DNA of 64,000 bases from the IMG/VR virus record IMGVR_UViG_3300048065_001264, positions 13,815-77,814 of that record; one strand, given 5' to 3'. The notes under the pieces were generated by a model, which saw only the letters and a program-made list of their open reading frames with translations, had not been told where the DNA came from and searched no databases. The translations under genes were made by a program, and so were the position numbers. Positions within the stretch are counted from its first letter, which is position 1. Every line of letters starts with the position of its first letter. The stretch comes from a virus. Below, piece by piece: positions 13,308 through 54,627 of the stretch.

Positions 13308-13936
13308 TTTCCGTCTCCGAATTCACCTAAGATTTCATGTATTATAGACTCCACCGCACAGAATTTTGTACAGACACGATTTTCTGATGTGTTTATCTTA
13401 GATAAATCTACTGATTCATTTAAATTTACAGGTTCGAGAAATGCACCTCGTGTGGATGGGTTACTAACGAAATCAAATGCGACCAATTCAAAGTCATCAT
13501 TTACCAGTGTCGTTCCTTCATGTTCACGGGTTGTTCCCATTCCACGTGAACTTATTCCAAGTGTAATTCCACCCTTGAAAAGTTCTTTTAAAATATTACC
13601 AGCAGGAGTTCCAAGTATTTCTACATCACCCAAGAGATTATCACCTTCCCACCACATCTTTGTAACATTGTGACTTACATTTTGTAAATTGACTACACTA
13701 CTCTCTGGATGATCTAACTCTCCCAATGCTCGTCTGTCGTTTATCATTTCTTGATATTTACCTGCCTCCCGTTCTAGCAAAGGACGAGAATACACTCTCC
13801 CATTTTGGTTCTGCTCGGTTGCTTTTTGCAAAATACCTCTTACCAATAGTTTACCTGAATTTTTTTCTATGCTTTCACTTATTTGTTCAGGACTAAACTC
13901 AAAGGGCATTGTAGATACTATTAATTTTTTTGCCAT
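13304..13936 (-). CDS. gp21: prohead core protease (gp21-like)
   Basis: NQNGRVY, ALGELDHP (catalytic His), GISSRGMG (catalytic Ser), DFVSNPS. Confidence 0.95.
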   Translation of the reverse strand: MAKKLIVSTMPFEFSPEQISESIEKNSGKLLVRGILQKATEQNQNGRVYSRPLLEREAGKYQEMINDRRALGELDHPESSVVNLQNVSHNVTKMWWEGDNLLGDVEILGTPAGNILKELFKGGITLGISSRGMGTTREHEGTTLVNDDFELVAFDFVSNPSTRGAFLEPVNLNESVDLSKINTSENRVCTKFCAVESIIHEILGEFGDGK

Positions 13937-26687: not shown

Positions 26688-27725
26688 TTACTCTTTAAAG
26701 TCTAAATTTCTAATATGATGAAAGTATTTATTAAGTTGATTTTTAGATAACTCAAGACTATCAACTATACGAGAAAGTACTGCTAAATTTCTTTGTTCAT
26801 TTAAATCAAACTTTTTAATCACATGAATTGAACGACTTAAATGTCTTTCCAAGTCCATTGGTAAAACAACATCTTGCATTGTATCAATAGTATACTCTTC
26901 GTTTACACGACTTCTTTTGTCACCACTCTTGCTCATTTTATCATGTGCCATCATGATTTTAATCCATTTCTTTCCAATTGGATTTCTAATTGGTTTTGAA
27001 ATAAATTTTGCTACCTCTTTCATAAGTCGTGGAACTAAATCTAATCTACCTGGTTTTGTTTTACTACGAGTATCTTCTGAATTATCTACTATAACAAAAT
27101 TTGCTTTGAATAAACCTTGAAACTTACCAATATTTTTTTGAACATCTGTCCAAATATCTTTTACTATTTTTCTTGGAAGTTTTCTCTTACGCATTGCGTT
27201 TCTTTGTTGTGCCACATCTAATGTTGTATTTACAAACACCATATAGCAATCGTATCCAAGTTTTTCAAGTTCTTGTTTTTGCTTTGATATTTTGCTATAA
27301 TTATCACCTGTTCCGTCAACTATTACACCCAAACGGCCGTCTTTGAATAATTCAAATTGTTTAAGCATTATTTTCTTTGCACGTGAACGAACACTATTTG
27401 GATCATCACTTGTTACTTTAGCAAATGTTTCGTCATCCATTTTAGATAGATTCAGATCATATCCTGCTTTTTTAAGTAATATCTCAAATGCAGGATCACT
27501 ATTTACAATCTTTAATCCACTTGGAGATAAATTGGCTGCGTCAGGTGGAAAATTAAATAATGTATCAACAGTAGCAGATTTACCTGATCCAGGACCTCCT
27601 GCTAGAAATACTGCTTTTAAAATACCAGGATCATATACACCCTCTACAAGTGTAAAGTATCCTTTACGCAACCCTGCTTTAATCAGGGTTTCTTGGACTT
27701 TTTGATTTTCTTCGGATTTTTCCAT
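26688..27725 (-). CDS. P-loop kinase (zeta-toxin/AAA_33/polynucleotide kinase-like)
   Basis: AVFLAGGPGSGKS Walker A, VNSD, IVDGTG, A..RN..R.R lid. Confidence 0.85.
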   Translation of the reverse strand: MEKSEENQKVQETLIKAGLRKGYFTLVEGVYDPGILKAVFLAGGPGSGKSATVDTLFNFPPDAANLSPSGLKIVNSDPAFEILLKKAGYDLNLSKMDDETFAKVTSDDPNSVRSRAKKIMLKQFELFKDGRLGVIVDGTGDNYSKISKQKQELEKLGYDCYMVFVNTTLDVAQQRNAMRKRKLPRKIVKDIWTDVQKNIGKFQGLFKANFVIVDNSEDTRSKTKPGRLDLVPRLMKEVAKFISKPIRNPIGKKWIKIMMAHDKMSKSGDKRSRVNEEYTIDTMQDVVLPMDLERHLSRSIHVIKKFDLNEQRNLAVLSRIVDSLELSKNQLNKYFHHIRNLDFKE

Positions 27726-27768
27726 AAATACAATTCAGGTACATAATAAATATATATCTAAATATGTT

Positions 27769-30369
27769 TTATGCTCCGTATTTTATCTTACTAAATGAAC
27801 CTTCTTTTTGAATTTCTACAATTTCATCCACCATATCTCGCATAACATCCAAATGACTAATGACCACGATGAACTCAAACTGACCTTTTAGATAAGTAAA
27901 TAGATTAAATACACTGCTAATATTGTCTCCGTCTAATGTACCCCAACCTTCGTCAATAACAAGGAAATTAGAACGAGGAAGACTGCTTACATTGATAAGT
28001 GCTACACGCATAGCAATACTGCTTATGAATCGTTCCATACCACTACACATCTCTAAAGGCCAATGACGGTCTTCGTAGGTTATCTTTGAGTAAATGTGTT
28101 TTCCATCCATTTCAAGATTCATACCGAAATCAACAATTTGAGAAAGAATATTATTAACTTCACTTTCAATACTTGGAATTGTTTTAGAAATTAACTCGTA
28201 TGAAATACCATCTCGTTTTACCGCATCAAGATACAATTCGTACCCTCTCTTTTTTCTTTCATAACTTTTTGCTTCTTCTATTGATGCAAGAATATCTTCG
28301 TGTTCCTTTTCAGCAATTTTTACCTCACCAAAAAGAGTTTGAAGTTTTTCATTTTCTTCATTCGCTATATTGTTTACGGACAATAACTTGCTTTGAAGAT
28401 CATCTACCTCTAGTTGTAGTTTTTTATTAAATTCAATTATGTCCTTGCACTCATGATACGAATCGATATTTTTGTTATTAATTATAATATCTTTTTCAAG
28501 TGACTCTATCATACTAGATAAAGCAAGAACTTTTGAATCGGCTTCGTTGATTTCAAATGAAGTTTGTGTCAAAGTATTATTTAAATCTTTCAATTCCTCA
28601 TATTCATTTTCTACATTTTCAAATTCACTTAATTGCTCTGTGTATACTGCCTTTTGCTTTACAAGTTCGTCTGCGGCTGCTTTGTCTTTGTCAAGTTCTT
28701 GTTTAGTTTGTTCTGCACTTTCAATTAAGTTTTTAGAATTGTTTACACAATACGAACAATTCGGATCATATTCGTGGTCATCATAATGTTTTAATTTATC
28801 AAGTTTAGCATTAACTGAAGTTCTCAGAACTGCTAAGTCTTTATCGACAATCACTACATCTTCTCTTATTTTAAGAACCTTTACATAATTTTCTTCTACA
28901 CCATATAACTCGGAAATTCTTTTTGACAAATCTCCTCGTTTATTTACAAGTTCTTTTTTACGTGCAGATTCTTCACCTCTTTGTTTTTCTGCTTCTAAAA
29001 GCCTATCTTCCAAATTCTTTTTATTAAACTCCAAATTATCTATATCTGAACTATCGTTATCAAACGAACAATTTTTAAAATTTGAACTTTTATCAGAAAG
29101 AATTTTATTTACTCTTTTTTGTTCAAGTAAAGCAATATTAGTTTTGCTCTCTTGTTCAGAATATTGTTCAGATATATTATCAAGTTTTTCTTTAATTTCT
29201 GCCAATGTTTCATCAAAATTTTCACGATTAAATCTTTTTAATAAAGCATTTATTTCTTTTATATCCTCAGATGCAGTAGAGTGTAATTGATCAAATATAT
29301 CAATTCCCATAAATTGAGCAAGCAGGTCTTTTCTTTCACTTTGACTTTTATCTATAAAAATTGCATTGTTGTTTTGTAAACTAAGAGTAGTTAAAACAAA
29401 ATCTTCATAAGAACCCACATGATCACGGATAATGGCATTTGTTCCTGATCGTTGCTCTCCATTCAGTGAAATAGTTTGACCTTCTTCATCTAGTTTCCAA
29501 AAGTCCACAACAACAGTAACATCTCCATTCTTTTTTGTGGATGCAGTTCTCTCAATATAATAATTTACTCCACCTATTTCAAAATTAAGTTTACAATAAA
29601 AAGAATCTGTTTGTGTATTTAGTACGTGTGAAGCCTTGAATGCACGATCACATTTATCAAATAAGCAAAAACTTAATGCACTCATCACACTGCTTTTTCC
29701 ACTTGCATTAGAAGCAAACAATCCCATAACACTTTTCATATTAGAAAAGTCAATAACATTCCCGTCTCCGTAACTAAACATATTTCCAAATTCAAACTTC
29801 TTTGGTTTCCAAATACAATTTTTGAGTATTTCTTTTATTATCAGTTTTTCATTTACTTCTTTGTTTATATCAAGAGCAGTTTTTATTTGTTCTTCATCAA
29901 CTACAAAATTACGAGTTAGATAATCTTCAATAAGATCGTTTTGAATTTGGACAAGTGATATGTCTCCAAAATCAAATTTATTATCACGATCAAACTTTTT
30001 TGCTTCAGAAATCGCATCACATCGTGTAACATTTAAATCAGTTATACTCGTTTGCTTCCGTATTTCTGCAATAATCTCTTTTGTCTCGGTTGCGGTTGTA
30101 TTATACACCTTGACACGCAATCTTGCTTTATTTGGTAGTTTAGATAAATCACTAACACACTTTCCATCACGAACCGTAACAGTATAATAACCATATTCAT
30201 TATGTACATCATAATGTTGATGTGTTCTATTTTCCAAATCCCATAAAACATATCCATGTCCAGACGGAAGTTCTCCGTGGTTTTGTTGTATCATACTACC
30301 AGAATAAACAACAACTGGTTTATCAGGATTGTGTCTGATTACCTTTATATATTTTTCTTTATCTTCCAT
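27769..30369 (-). CDS. sbcC: SbcC/Rad50 (gp46-like) ATPase fused at its N-terminus to the C-terminal part of the SbcD/Mre11 nuclease
   Basis: N-terminal YSGS..QQNHGE..HGY; Walker A NASGKSS; zinc hook CSYC; CSGME signature; IDEGWGTLD; ISH. Confidence 0.9.
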   Translation of the reverse strand: MEDKEKYIKVIRHNPDKPVVVYSGSMIQQNHGELPSGHGYVLWDLENRTHQHYDVHNEYGYYTVTVRDGKCVSDLSKLPNKARLRVKVYNTTATETKEIIAEIRKQTSITDLNVTRCDAISEAKKFDRDNKFDFGDISLVQIQNDLIEDYLTRNFVVDEEQIKTALDINKEVNEKLIIKEILKNCIWKPKKFEFGNMFSYGDGNVIDFSNMKSVMGLFASNASGKSSVMSALSFCLFDKCDRAFKASHVLNTQTDSFYCKLNFEIGGVNYYIERTASTKKNGDVTVVVDFWKLDEEGQTISLNGEQRSGTNAIIRDHVGSYEDFVLTTLSLQNNNAIFIDKSQSERKDLLAQFMGIDIFDQLHSTASEDIKEINALLKRFNRENFDETLAEIKEKLDNISEQYSEQESKTNIALLEQKRVNKILSDKSSNFKNCSFDNDSSDIDNLEFNKKNLEDRLLEAEKQRGEESARKKELVNKRGDLSKRISELYGVEENYVKVLKIREDVVIVDKDLAVLRTSVNAKLDKLKHYDDHEYDPNCSYCVNNSKNLIESAEQTKQELDKDKAAADELVKQKAVYTEQLSEFENVENEYEELKDLNNTLTQTSFEINEADSKVLALSSMIESLEKDIIINNKNIDSYHECKDIIEFNKKLQLEVDDLQSKLLSVNNIANEENEKLQTLFGEVKIAEKEHEDILASIEEAKSYERKKRGYELYLDAVKRDGISYELISKTIPSIESEVNNILSQIVDFGMNLEMDGKHIYSKITYEDRHWPLEMCSGMERFISSIAMRVALINVSSLPRSNFLVIDEGWGTLDGDNISSVFNLFTYLKGQFEFIVVISHLDVMRDMVDEIVEIQKEGSFSKIKYGA

Positions 30370-31294
30370 TCGTTACAATTTCTAAAATATGTTGTCCAAC
30401 CTCATAATCATTTAAATATGGACTAAGATGAACATGACCTTGCTTTGGAAAATACATATTAGGTCCTAAAAAGGGTGTTCTTTTTTCCAAGTTCTTTAAG
30501 TCACCTCCTTGTTGTTGCCATAAAATTCCTTTAGGACCAAACATTTGGTGAATATAGTCTGTTGTAATAATTGTCTTCGTTCCAATTGCAGATGAAATGT
30601 TTGTAATACAACCCTCCGACCCAATTACATAATCACAATTTTTAATTAAACTTGCAGTAAACGAGAATTTACTTGTGGAGTTAATTTCAGGAAAATTCTT
30701 AGAAATTTTTTCGTCTAACCCCAACGCAAATAAAAGAATATCAGAAGATAATTCTAAGCAATTTATAATATCAAAAATATTTCTAGAACCCGACCCATAT
30801 CCATTGCCAGTTTTGCCACCGTCTGCTCTTTGATACTCCTCTTCTGTAAATAGGAAACTTTTTCGTGACCAGTCTACTTGATATCCGACTAGTTTTACAT
30901 CTTCTTCAAGTTCACCTATATTTTTTAATTCATTTATACTTTTTCTAATAGAATAGTCGAGTGTTGGGTTTGTAAAAATTTCAAAGGAATCATCATAGTT
31001 TTTGATATTGCACATTTTTTGAAATTGAGATACTGCCGATTCGTATGGGTCTAATACTGACACATCTTCATCCATTATAGTATGTACGATATCGTAATCT
31101 ATATTTGCACTCTCTTTATAGAAAACTCCATCTATATATGGATTATTTAAAAGTAATTCAATTGGTTGTAAAAAAGAAATATCAAAATGCACTAAGCTGT
31201 TAGGATTCATTTCTTTAATTTTCTTGGCAACACTACTTGCGAAAAGTGTATCACCTATGTGTATATTTCTACACCTAACAAGTATCTTAGTCAT
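30359..31294 (-). CDS. glycosyltransferase, GT9 (heptosyltransferase-like) family
   Basis: KILVR...HIGDTLF.S.V.K.IK...P and ASLIKNCDYVIGSEG..TNISSAIGTKTI; likely start ATG at 31294. Confidence 0.75.
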   Translation of the reverse strand: MTKILVRCRNIHIGDTLFASSVAKKIKEMNPNSLVHFDISFLQPIELLLNNPYIDGVFYKESANIDYDIVHTIMDEDVSVLDPYESAVSQFQKMCNIKNYDDSFEIFTNPTLDYSIRKSINELKNIGELEEDVKLVGYQVDWSRKSFLFTEEEYQRADGGKTGNGYGSGSRNIFDIINCLELSSDILLFALGLDEKISKNFPEINSTSKFSFTASLIKNCDYVIGSEGCITNISSAIGTKTIITTDYIHQMFGPKGILWQQQGGDLKNLEKRTPFLGPNMYFPKQGHVHLSPYLNDYEVGQHILEIVTNGR

Positions 31295-31991
31295 CACTAA
31301 CACACCACCCTTCTAGTTTATATTCGTCTAGTTTACTATCAGGAATAAATCTATGCTCAGTTTGATACTCTTGTAAAACTTGATACTTGTGTATATCCCC
31401 AAGCATAACAATATCATATCCGTTAAACATAGGTAAGTTAATATCCCCACCCATAACTACATATCCTATATCAGTTCTACTTCTTTTTACCGCACCATGA
31501 TATACTGCTATCTTGGTTTTAATAGAATCATCTTTTATGTCAGACCCTTTGATATATTTTACCGGATCTTCAAATATTCCAAAGACACCGATGGCAACAT
31601 CACCTAATTTATATACACCCGTATCTTTTAGATAAAACAAATTGTCGTCGTCCATCATATCAAGTATAGGTGATAATACATCAAGACGATCAGGGTTATT
31701 TAAATTACAGTCGTGATTACCTGCAATTACAATTGTAGGATGAAGTTTGGAACACTCTCTTAAAAACGAAGATATTTGATGAATCAACTCAGGACTCATC
31801 TCTGTCTTAGCATGAGCAATGTCCCCACCGATAAAAATGATTGCATTATCAAGATTATCATCTTTAACTTGTTTGTAAAAATTTTCAAATACAAGTGAAT
31901 ATTCATTGTGCCTTTTTACATTTCTAATATGAATGTCTGCAAGATGATATACTTTTTCAACATTATTTAAATTTGTTTTTAGTTCATGCAT
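31287..31991 (-). CDS. sbcD: SbcD/Mre11 (gp47-like) metallophosphoesterase, N-terminal fragment
   Basis: HLADIH, GGDIAH, AGNHD, YHG, LGDIHK; lacks the following YxGS/capping region. Confidence 0.88.
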   Translation of the reverse strand: MHELKTNLNNVEKVYHLADIHIRNVKRHNEYSLVFENFYKQVKDDNLDNAIIFIGGDIAHAKTEMSPELIHQISSFLRECSKLHPTIVIAGNHDCNLNNPDRLDVLSPILDMMDDDNLFYLKDTGVYKLGDVAIGVFGIFEDPVKYIKGSDIKDDSIKTKIAVYHGAVKRSRTDIGYVVMGGDINLPMFNGYDIVMLGDIHKYQVLQEYQTEHRFIPDSKLDEYKLEGWCVSDD

Positions 31992-32908
31992 AGTTTTTGT
32001 TTCATCAATTCACTAAAATCAAGAAATTCTGCGTTTCTAATTTTGTGAATTATTTTGTTAAACCCAATGTCCGCTGCATCTTCGTTTCCCATTTTGACGA
32101 GTCTAACTTTTATGCTTTCACTCATCAATGTTTCGGAAATTTGTAATGCGTTTTTAAATGCATCGTTATCAAGAACGATACATACCTCAGAAACTCCGTG
32201 CTCAACTAATTTTGTTTTTAGTTTACTTGGAATATTCTTCCCCAATAATGGAATTGCGTTTCTACGAATTGCCATAGCATCAAATACACCTTCGCAAAAA
32301 ATAAGTGGTTCGGAGAAATCAATTTGATTTTCAAACACCACTACATCTTTACTAACCGGTGGATTTTTGTATCGTAAATACGCAGTTCCTGTAAAATCTC
32401 TTGCTATAAAATAATTTAAATTATTATCACAATCATATGATGGTATTATAATTCTATTTGCATAATCACCACTTTCACAATATCCAATATTATATCTTTC
32501 TATATCATATGAAAATATATTTCGTTGTCTTAGGTAATTAAACGCAGACTTTGATGCTCTTGTTTTTTCATTATCATACTGCAATGATGTAAATTCATAT
32601 GGAAGGTGAATTTTAACTTGTTCTTCCTCGGTCTGTTGCGTACTTTTTGGTATCTTTACAATTCTTGATAATTCTGTAAGATATTGAGGAGCAACATTCA
32701 TCTTCTTAAATAAACCATAAATTGATCTACCTTTTGAATTTGTATCAATCCAACTCTGCCATCTCTGCGTAGATAGATTAATAGCAAGTTTCGGTTTTCT
32801 ATGGTGCGAAAATGGACACATAAACATAGCCTCGTCTTTAGAGACGATTTTTCCATTTCCTAATACTTTTTGTAAAAGATTAAGAAGTTTTTGTTCGGAA
32901 ATACCCAC
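31979..32908 (-). CDS. DNA primase (DnaG/gp61-like)
   Basis: N-terminal CPF..H, RIIIP, Y..P, TOPRIM EGVFD and LDND. Confidence 0.88.
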   Translation of the reverse strand: MGISEQKLLNLLQKVLGNGKIVSKDEAMFMCPFSHHRKPKLAINLSTQRWQSWIDTNSKGRSIYGLFKKMNVAPQYLTELSRIVKIPKSTQQTEEEQVKIHLPYEFTSLQYDNEKTRASKSAFNYLRQRNIFSYDIERYNIGYCESGDYANRIIIPSYDCDNNLNYFIARDFTGTAYLRYKNPPVSKDVVVFENQIDFSEPLIFCEGVFDAMAIRRNAIPLLGKNIPSKLKTKLVEHGVSEVCIVLDNDAFKNALQISETLMSESIKVRLVKMGNEDAADIGFNKIIHKIRNAEFLDFSELMKQKLCMN

Positions 32909-33432
32909 TATTTTAAAGAATACCAGTGATACAACGATGCGACCACCGCATCAAGCATATCGTAGTTTTTTTTATCATAATTATTCTTAGAATTATAGTG
33001 AATAAATTCGGATAAATCAAGCATATTATCAATATTGCACTTTACAAATGTTTTACTATCTAATCCTTTTTCTCTACTTTTTCCGAATACCACTTTACGT
33101 AAAGTTGATACATTTACATGATCAACCTGAACTTTGAATAGTTCTTCAATTACATAACTTACAATAGCATTACACTTTGCCAGTTTAACAATAGTTTGTT
33201 GACTTGTTCGGCCACCACCGAACCCACTTAAAGTGTCTTCCACTATTATTGTTGATACATTGTTTATTTCAATAGAAGATAATGTATCCGAAACATAATG
33301 TGCTTTTTCACGAAAGTTTGTAAGTTTTTTTACATCAACAAAACCTGCATAATCTATATTTGATTTAGAAGATGAGTAGCAGTATCCAACTACACTTGTA
33401 CTTATATCCAATCCTAAACAATATTTTGACAT
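32908..33432 (-). CDS. RuvC-like Holliday junction resolvase
   Basis: LGLDIST..GY, IIVE, D..DA acidic residues. Confidence 0.8.
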   Translation of the reverse strand: MSKYCLGLDISTSVVGYCYSSSKSNIDYAGFVDVKKLTNFREKAHYVSDTLSSIEINNVSTIIVEDTLSGFGGGRTSQQTIVKLAKCNAIVSYVIEELFKVQVDHVNVSTLRKVVFGKSREKGLDSKTFVKCNIDNMLDLSEFIHYNSKNNYDKKNYDMLDAVVASLYHWYSLK

Positions 33433-54042: not shown

Positions 54043-54627
54043 TTATGATGAAAATGGAAACGTTTCGATGTCTGGTTCCTCGTTCTTTTGTTGTTCTGTA
54101 AGTGGTAGAAAAGGAAACACATCACTAAAATCATTTGGTGAATTTCCCTCACCAGCAGATATTCTCTGACTAATAATAATATCCCGTGATGCTCTATAGG
54201 TTTCATTTGCATCCTCTGTAAATTTAACCGATTTTTGCATTTCCTCGTCAAGTCTTTCCGAGAGTTCATCTATCTGAGCCTGTAAAAGTTTTTGTTCATC
54301 TAGTTCCTCGTCAACTTCTTCCAGTAAAGTTATATCCTCTGTTGTAGTAATACCAGAATCTAAATCAGGATTATCCACGATTGTTTGAAATTCACTAATT
54401 GATGTGTCGTAAAATGTTTCTACTTGTTCTTTTATTAATTTTTTTTTACCAATAGGAACTGTTAAAATATAGTCACTTATCAACGAATCTTCGGATATTT
54501 CTTCAGTTTTGAGAATGATATTTCCAAAATTGTCACGATTGTTATTAAGTTTTCCGGTACTTAATAAATCAGAAAGTTGTTCTTGGTTAAATTTGTTTTT
54601 GGATAGATACGATGGAAAGTTATTCAT
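54043..54627 (-). CDS. hypothetical protein (acidic, coiled coil)
   Basis: 194-aa ORF in the baseplate operon. Confidence 0.7.
   Translation of the reverse strand: MNNFPSYLSKNKFNQEQLSDLLSTGKLNNNRDNFGNIILKTEEISEDSLISDYILTVPIGKKKLIKEQVETFYDTSISEFQTIVDNPDLDSGITTTEDITLLEEVDEELDEQKLLQAQIDELSERLDEEMQKSVKFTEDANETYRASRDIIISQRISAGEGNSPNDFSDVFPFLPLTEQQKNEEPDIETFPFSS

Follow-up and report, generated by a model that had tools for sequence, protein, structure and literature searches.

A fractured SbcD–SbcC gene in a marine phage clade, broken inside the nuclease core around a GT9-like gene and probably working as a two-chain nuclease

Introduction

The closest described counterparts of the locus reported here are an SbcD-like locus and a phage ribonucleotide reductase gene, each of them interrupted by an endonuclease gene. 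The former, a single intein-less case from the Lake Gatun data of the Global Ocean Sampling (GOS) survey, is split by a Vsr-like endonuclease gene that overlaps the downstream open reading frame (ORF), and its broken ends carry a 25-amino-acid (aa) tail and a 9-aa head, both absent from intact SbcD (Dassa et al. 2009, Nucleic Acids Res 37:2560; PMC2677866); overlaps of 6-69 bp between intervening and downstream ORFs were reported in the same study. The latter is nrdA of Aeromonas phage Aeh1, where the tails that stem from the insertion of mobE are essential for activity (Crona et al. 2010, Nucleic Acids Res 39:1381; PMC3045599). Here we analyze a stretch of 64,000 nucleotides (nt) from the IMG/VR virus record IMGVR_UViG_3300048065_001264 (positions 13,815 to 77,814 of that record), called the window below, in which an SbcD/Mre11 nuclease gene is broken inside its catalytic core, the C-terminal part is fused to SbcC/Rad50 and a GT9-like glycosyltransferase-type gene lies in the break. 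We put the probability at roughly 0.8 that this is an intein-less 'fractured gene' whose product is a two-chain nuclease, the break having been made by a mobile cassette.

The locus resembles the Lake Gatun case in that SbcD is split between consecutive conserved motifs into two same-strand ORFs, with extra flanking peptides and no split intein, and in that the downstream ORF begins before the intervening one has ended. Among the differences, the slot is taken by a GT9-like GT-B gene in place of a Vsr-like endonuclease gene, and the head, at 18 aa, is both longer and hardly basic. In addition, we show that the downstream half runs into a full Rad50/SbcC, and an entire marine clade shares the arrangement as a fixed feature, whereas the 2009 case is a single locus. 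In Aeh1, an essential enzyme gene is likewise fragmented by a free-standing homing endonuclease, with insertion-derived tails at the new termini and with function restored without RNA or protein splicing; however, the enzyme there is the large subunit of ribonucleotide reductase, the phage still carries its endonuclease and the tails are essential by experiment, whereas here their role is predicted by modeling. When set against the canonical SbcCD, Mre11-Rad50 and T4 gp47/gp46 systems (4lty, 6s6v, 7dog, 3tho, 1ii7), the locus shows the same phosphoesterase motifs, the same nuclease-plus-capping fold (Z 23-26, for an intact relative) and the same Rad50 Walker A and B, signature and zinc hook. 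In those systems, the boundary between the chains comes after the capping and Rad50-binding regions of Mre11, whereas here it falls inside the phosphoesterase core and the C-terminal part of Mre11 is covalently joined to Rad50.

The gene-in-pieces layout is not new, having been described in 2009 (PMC2677866). The new elements are a slot occupant that is not a nuclease and has become fixed in the marine clade, a break that recurs polyphyletically, and forms that may have been re-fused. A literature search linking fractured genes with SbcD found only PMC2677866, and one on natural SbcD–SbcC fusions and split Mre11 in jumbo phages found nothing beyond PMC2677866 and PMC3045599.

Anatomy of the split SbcD–SbcC locus

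Three minus-strand ORFs, each in a different frame and each overlapping its neighbor, fill positions 27769-31991 of the window; an earlier note on this DNA had given coordinates for all three and for both overlaps, every one of which is correct. The upstream ORF (31287..31991, minus strand) encodes a 234-aa N-terminal fragment of SbcD/Mre11 (the N-fragment) with the metal-ligand motifs I to V, namely ADIH (residues 18-21), GGDI (55-58), GNHD (91-94), YHG (164-166) and GDIH (198-201), and it stops 33 aa past the last of these. Motif V (31389..31400, minus strand), which is GDIH and not GHxH throughout this phage family, is the last conserved SbcD element ahead of the break. The N-fragment covers the whole of the Pfam Metallophos profile (35.1 bits against a cut-off of 21.5) and matches phrog_100 ('SbcD-like', 2e-17) in PHROGs. 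In an alignment of 21 split homologues, D19, H21, D57, N92, H93, H165 and H201 are invariant together with the motif residues.

The downstream ORF (27769..30369, minus strand) encodes the rest of SbcD fused to SbcC in a chain of 866 aa (the C-fragment), which opens with an 18-aa head and continues with YSGS (22-25), QQNHGE (28-33), GHGY (37-40) and then a complete Rad50/SbcC. The remainder of the SbcD/Mre11 module, that is, the last core β-strands (YSGS, QQNHGE and GHGY-LWD) and the capping domain, corresponds to residues ~19-125 (29995..30315, minus strand; the outer limit is approximate), and a linker with the SbcC/Rad50 part, delimited by motifs, Pfam and PHROGs, follows at 27769..29994 on the same strand. 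By motif, the latter displays a Walker A (residues 221-227; 29689-29709), a CSYC zinc hook (538-541; 28747-28758), the signature SGMERF (776-781; 28027-28044), a Walker B (802-808; 27946-27966) and an H-loop (837-841; 27847-27861), all on the minus strand; these comprise the features by which a Rad50/SbcC ABC ATPase with a CxxC hook is recognized. Concordantly, the C-fragment matches Pfam AAA_23 at 51.4 bits (cut-off 27) and phrog_77 ('SbcC-like', 9e-45), with SbcC_Walker_B reaching only 16.8 bits, under its cut-off. In Mre11/SbcD, the catalytic domain is one polypeptide, but here the YSGS, QQNHGE and GHGY strands are on a second chain.

Between the two lies the middle ORF (30359..31294, minus strand), which codes for a GT9-like GT-B protein of 311 aa when read from its ATG; as listed by the ORF program, it begins at a GTG at 31303. 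Its start overlaps the stop of the N-fragment by 8 nt (ATGACTAA at 31294-31287), and its 3′ end overlaps the start of the C-fragment by 11 nt (ATGGAAGATAA at 30369-30359), so that the overlap of intervening and downstream ORFs expected of a fractured gene is present. No minus-strand terminator was detected between the three ORFs in a scan for sigma-70 promoters and terminators; the same scan gave 47 promoter-like sites against 33 ± 6 in shuffled sequences and has little to tell in DNA as AT-rich as this.

A fused ancestor broken inside the nuclease core

Descent from an SbcD–SbcC fusion had been proposed from the window alone, and the single-chain form is indeed dominant among the relatives. 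An exhaustive profile-free search with the N-fragment found 3197 of these, and because 119 of the best 150 representatives are fused proteins of ~1040-1100 aa, a single-chain Mre11–Rad50 of ~1050 aa is the normal state of this phage family. Among 239 fetched loci (160 of them from two further scans), in which the state was assigned by tblastn, 139 are fused and 56 are split. In cultured or curated phage records, tblastn found the two halves contiguous in one 1066-aa protein of Microcystis phage Mel-JY01, with the same primase gene upstream, and in a 1202-aa protein of the 735-kb huge phage LR756501. The distance of 10-20 aa that had been expected between motif V and the YxGS strand in an intact protein is borne out by the fused relatives: the GDIH-to-YxGS linker is 12-23 aa long in 111 of the 119 fused representatives and 12-22 aa long in the 104 fused loci that could be measured by motif pattern. 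Two further loci carry an SbcD-like ORF that ends ~235-250 aa past motif V (L161:6001-7320 and L172:6001-7296); rather than marking an intradomain break, these ends would reflect either the classical SbcD/SbcC boundary or a break in the frame.

We located the break in the fold on an AlphaFold2 model of an intact relative, P0131 (mean predicted local distance difference test, pLDDT, 85); a profile of the C-head, when compared with PDB sequences, had returned only a spurious designed protein (E 0.011), and the intact relative was used instead. Residues 4-304 of P0131 align to Staphylococcus aureus SbcD (7dog_B) with a Z of 26.0 and a root-mean-square deviation (rmsd) of 3.1 Å over 277 aligned residues, and the Z against Escherichia coli SbcD (4m0v) is 25.2. 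Plain metallophosphoesterases align only over residues 1 to ~238, and the break maps to about residue 197, i.e., ~40 residues and three strands short of the end of the catalytic core. It is therefore an intradomain break, as the earlier note had it, and not one at a domain boundary, and the N-fragment alone is not a complete Mre11 domain. The nuclease-plus-capping fold is recovered in P0131 itself; for the window, it rests on the two-chain model.

For that model, a complex prediction was run with alignments of 21 N-fragments and 16 C-heads. The two pieces are predicted to associate with an interface score (ipSAE) of 0.90 (0.88, 0.91 and 0.90 in the individual runs), against 0.01 for the best of three controls; in the calibration of the method, 58 of 80 solved complexes but only 2 of 110 mismatched pairs score this high. 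Between runs, at least 95% of contacts coincide, and the pLDDT of the partner is at least 71. In the model, residues 19-22 of the C-fragment pair with 195-197 and 203-206 of the N-fragment, residues 40-45 pair with the first strand of the N-fragment (13-16), and the N-fragment tail (207-234) touches head residues 5-18. Since halves of a known fold tend to pass such a test through their likeness to solved structures, the prediction that the two chains complete the fold supports rather than demonstrates binding in a cell.

Conservation and selection in the marine clade

The order primase, N-fragment, middle ORF, C-fragment and zeta-like kinase recurs in 36 IMG/VR contigs from ~32 metagenomes in a search seeded with the middle ORF family. 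The transferase gene is present in all 36, and no close relative without it was found, a search seeded with the N-fragment having recovered the same contigs. The start/stop overlaps seen in the window proved to be conserved: the 8-nt overlap is kept in 32 of the 36 contigs and the 11-nt overlap in 29-33 of them, even where the middle proteins are only 49% identical, and the layout is retained in a clade that has diverged to ~70% identity.

Relative to the window, the ratio of nonsynonymous to synonymous substitution rates (dN/dS) is 0.02-0.11 for the N-fragment, 0.05-0.14 for the C-fragment and 0.06-0.33 for the middle ORF; both SbcD halves are under strong purifying selection. The catalytic motifs of the N-fragment are invariant across clades down to 33% identity, and the C-head residues that complete the fold are likewise invariant in the alignment of split homologues. 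The suggestion that the halves now work as two chains thus gains from the selection on both pieces and from their predicted re-association, with assembly and nuclease activity standing as predictions. A misassembly at the junctions, which would have undone the whole interpretation, was checked directly: both junctions are bridged by contigs from an independent seawater DNA run, with no differences. Misassembly and pseudogenization are excluded to a reasonable standard. In one contig (L034:6875-9461), the C-fragment match is divided between two frames (residues 1-769 and 772-864), which represents a frameshift or a sequencing error.

With respect to the closest relatives, L005 and L028, the synonymous divergence (dS) of the middle gene is 1.24-1.36, as against 0.46-0.59 for the primase gene and the two SbcD/SbcC halves. 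Because this is more than twice the value of the neighbors, it indicates exchange of alleles in the slot rather than mere relaxation of constraint. Such mosaicism is not unique to the slot: a neighboring gene for a zeta-toxin/AAA_33-like P-loop kinase (26688-27725, minus strand) is also affected, with a dS of 0.49 against L005 and 1.34 against L028, to both of which the SbcD halves are equally close, and recombination is thus frequent around the locus.

Tail and head peptides at the break

The two new termini at the break carry peptides without counterparts in the plain fused relatives. The C-terminal tail of the N-fragment (residues 210-234; 31290..31364, minus strand) has 25 aa and a net charge of −4, and is homologous to the tails of other split lineages, in the alignment of which E212 and Y224 are invariant and G228 nearly so; the net charge lies between −1 and −8 in all split sequences but one. 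The N-terminal head of the C-fragment (residues 1-18; 30316..30369, minus strand) is the equivalent of the basic heads, of the KKIKIKV type, seen in other split lineages. Its charge is +4 to +6 outside the clade of the window, 0 to +4 inside it and +1 in the window. Together, the tail and the head take the place of a short loop in the 12-23-aa linker, as is characteristic of fractured genes. The tail Gly-Trp codons (GGNTGG) also provide a GGTGG/GGGAGG Shine-Dalgarno-like element 10-14 nt upstream of the ATG of the middle ORF, in the window (31296-31312) and at the same place in L005-L060, and some of the conservation of the tail may therefore serve translation of the middle ORF.

A few fused proteins have a long linker of 39-53 aa (7 of the 119 fused representatives, 1083-1101 aa in length: P0130, P0187, P0176, P0210, P0141, P0221 and P0235). 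The tail motif is present in frame in at least the first four of these, and the linker of P0130 is nearly equal in total length to the tail plus head of the window. P0187 is the sister of the split P0147 (support 99), and the long-linker forms are scattered on the tree, with six changes for seven rows. They may be re-fusions after loss of the insert or may retain an ancestral hairpin.

Slot occupants and the origin of the break

A survey of the relatives for the same split point, as the earlier note had advised, found it with different inserts and with none. In the 484-kb huge phage LR756508, the same break, with a homologous tail and head, holds a different 305-aa insert that combines zinc fingers with a TnsA-like endonuclease domain. 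TnsA-like and zinc-finger ORFs occupy the slot in L001, and inserts of ~300 aa include a ROS/MucR finger with a TnsA-like domain (L216), a Vsr/DUF559-like protein matching phrog_3339 'homing endonuclease' at 4e-17 (L187/L188, the same layout as in the Lake Gatun locus) and an HNH-like protein (L080). In other loci, the halves abut or overlap with no insert (L178-L186 and L213) or are separated by a short spacer (L201, L230, L232 and L084). A tail pattern with an invariant Glu and Tyr is common to all of these. The view that no homing endonuclease, intron or intein is evident stands for the window; as to the endonuclease, it does not extend to the relatives, since the endonuclease gene between the halves that typifies a fractured gene is found in L001, L216, L187 and L080, and is lacking in the window.

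On a tree of the N-terminal core (FastTree, 195 rows), the split or fused state changes at least 13 times. Split forms sit on short branches beside fused sisters, as with L230 and the fused L205 (branch support 98), L201 and L212 (95), L080 and L130 (90), L187 and L190 (87), and P0159 and P0169 (99). A comparison of L201 with L212 at the DNA level, where the flanks are ~80% identical, shows a block of ~118 nt (tail, stop, 43-nt spacer, ATG and head) in place of ~15 nt. Because the same break and tails recur polyphyletically with endonuclease genes or with no insert, we think it probable that a homing-endonuclease cassette broke the gene and left the tail and the head behind, and the transferase gene would be a later occupant. 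That it replaced an endonuclease is suggested by the other lineages.

We accordingly propose the following course of events. The ancestor would have had Mre11 (SbcD) and Rad50 (SbcC) in one chain of ~1050 aa, into which a free-standing homing-endonuclease cassette would have entered past the strand that follows motif V and ahead of the YxGS strand, inside the phosphoesterase core, bringing an acidic tail of ~20-25 aa with a stop, the endonuclease gene, and a new start with a mostly basic head of ~9-18 aa. Such cassettes would repeatedly invade intact alleles, with the endonuclease genes later lost or swapped; in the marine clade, the slot would have come to be filled by a GT9-like GT-B glycosyltransferase-type gene of a family otherwise belonging to phage glycan-synthesis clusters. 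The nuclease would be made as two chains, an N-fragment with every metal ligand and a C-fragment contributing the final strands of the core and the capping domain along with the entire Rad50 ATPase, which would reassemble non-covalently to complete the β-sandwich. The complex model suggests that the tail and the head probably pack together as a clasp, and the three ORFs are probably translated in a coupled manner by way of their 8- and 11-nt overlaps. We regard two-chain reassembly after fracture by a cassette as likely.

Several points weigh against this proposal. No endonuclease gene or remnant was found in the window or its clade. The head is barely basic in that clade, which makes a charge-based clasp less convincing than in the endonuclease-bearing lineages; the core tree is built from ~200 columns and has 70 of its 192 branches unresolved; and the in-frame tail motif of the long-linker fused proteins could mean that the insertion is an older surface hairpin in which fission occurred. 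The last point leads to the alternative closest to that of the earlier note, which saw a spontaneous fission that later became a landing site: a surface hairpin of 35-50 aa would have evolved, the gene would have broken in it once or a few times, and the gap would have become a safe harbor for endonuclease or transferase genes. The fused proteins with tail and head in frame (P0130, P0187, P0176 and P0210), with P0187 next to the split P0147, and the different endonuclease families in one slot, which fit repeated landing, would be explained in this way. However, split forms with nearly the same tail motif stand beside close short-linker fused sisters in many unrelated branches, with endonuclease genes or nothing in the slot; the long-linker fused forms are rare, scattered and equally well explained as re-fusions after insert loss; and the tail, stop, start and head arrive as one block in the comparison of L201 with L212. 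We hence consider fission before cargo unlikely and favor a break made by the cassette.

Other accounts would deny that a two-chain nuclease exists at all. If the N-fragment were a dead remnant and the C-fragment an SbcC only, the nuclease would have been lost or be supplied by another gene, and since the 77.8-kb record is an estimated ~39% complete, another SbcD could lie outside it; but the record has a single SbcD-like match, and the low dN/dS of the N-fragment and its motifs invariant down to 33% identity, together with the invariant fold-completing residues of the C-head and the layout kept in a clade diverged to ~70%, make such decay highly improbable. We give still less credence to removal of the middle segment at the RNA or protein level, by an intron, an intein or ribosomal bypass, or to an assembly artifact. 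Nothing positive speaks for these: the RNA libraries X18-X20 gave short contigs only (at least 99% identity, with DNA carry-over possible), coverage too thin to exclude rare spliced forms, and the one RNA contig that crosses the transferase/C-fragment junction (30342-30551) reaches 28 nt into the C-fragment, under the 31-nt bridging rule. Against them, a cmscan of 27000-33000 with an E-value limit of 1 returned no Rfam match, and hence no group I or II intron; a conserved ORF under selection takes up the whole interval and extends into both neighbors, so that a ribozyme core would not fit; each of the three ORFs is in a frame of its own; no Pfam intein domain occurs in them, and the tail (25 aa) and head (18 aa), 43 aa in total, are too short for split-intein halves; the tail and head persist in frame in fused relatives; and the junctions are confirmed by the 36 contigs and the independent DNA run. 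A translational bypass of 935 nt was considered and rejected along with an intein, an intron, a pseudogene and a misassembly.

The GT9-like occupant

The assignment of the middle ORF as GT9-like, which had been made from the sequence alone, agrees with its AlphaFold2 model (pLDDT 86), a GT-B fold closest to GT9 structures. The top Foldseek matches are 3tov, 1psw and WaaC, and structure comparison gives a Z of 17.9 against 3tov_B (rmsd 3.7 Å, 246 aligned residues), 16.4 against WaaF (1psw), 15.6-15.8 against WaaC and 14.9 against TibC; other named GT-B glycosyltransferases and epimerases score 10.5 or less, and three plant NDH-PSI supercomplex chains fall in between at 14.7-15.1. Like the GT9 heptosyltransferases (WaaC, WaaF, TibC and 3tov; Z 14.9-17.9), the protein has two Rossmann domains in a GT-B fold; unlike them, it has no match to Pfam Glyco_transf_9 (PF01075) at E up to 1, the sole match being DUF354 (E 0.078), and its identity to the solved GT9 chains is 8-13%. 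No nuclease family in Pfam or PHROGs matches it, and tblastn found no match in cultured-phage records. Its 138 homologues are unnamed and without a Pfam domain. The distant ones (29-41% identity) occur in other phages without SbcD/SbcC neighbors, where they adjoin genes for a pfkB-family kinase, an NAD-dependent epimerase, a cupin, and GT2 and GT7-like proteins in clusters of the glycan type. We hence classify the protein as GT9-like by fold and context, a putative sugar transferase, although it does not match the Pfam GT9 profile.

The 77.8-kb record, which is a fragment, has no epimerase or GT2 gene. In fuller genomes of the clade (G001-G004; 130-170 kb and 66-84% complete), a gene for an NAD-dependent epimerase and one or more GT2 genes lie 40-50 kb from the break (e.g., G001:C1:46981-47676 and 54053-54481), and their products are possible partners of the GT9-like protein.

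Implications

If the proposed reading is right, an enzyme can withstand having its chain broken within the catalytic β-sandwich, provided that the invader supplies matching end-pieces. The single SbcD case of 2009 becomes a recurrent and polyphyletic one, with fused, freshly invaded, endonuclease-lost, possibly re-fused and other-cargo genes, and a site used by selfish elements can pass to an ordinary accessory gene that then stays there for long. For annotation, a 234-aa 'metallophosphoesterase' and an 'AAA-domain protein' in such phages would be one Mre11–Rad50 machine.

More speculatively, the module of tail, stop, start and head might be a portable gene-splitting cassette and the slot a general cargo site, with transferase alleles exchanged between phages and their expression locked to that of the nuclease by the overlaps. 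We hold this extension to be rather unlikely. Were it true, fracture cassettes would be vehicles for accessory genes and not for endonucleases only, and the tail and head, which are in any case a candidate natural split tag, would form a natural split mini-domain usable as a protein-complementation tag.

Neighboring genes and other mobile elements

Upstream of the N-fragment, whose start it overlaps, is a DNA primase gene (31979..32908, minus strand) that is syntenic in both split and fused relatives. In Mel-JY01 (L002:4244-4756), a GIY-YIG superfamily gene is located just upstream of the primase gene and the intact fused SbcD–SbcC, showing that mobile nucleases are frequent in this neighborhood even beside an unbroken gene. 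Further, two split N-fragments, P0126 (551 aa) and P0196 (545 aa), have an insertion of ~300 aa just after the GNHD of motif III (approximately residues 103-402 of P0126), which matches Intein_splicing and, in P0126, also LAGLIDADG_3; the same gene is thus a target of both an intein and a fracture cassette.

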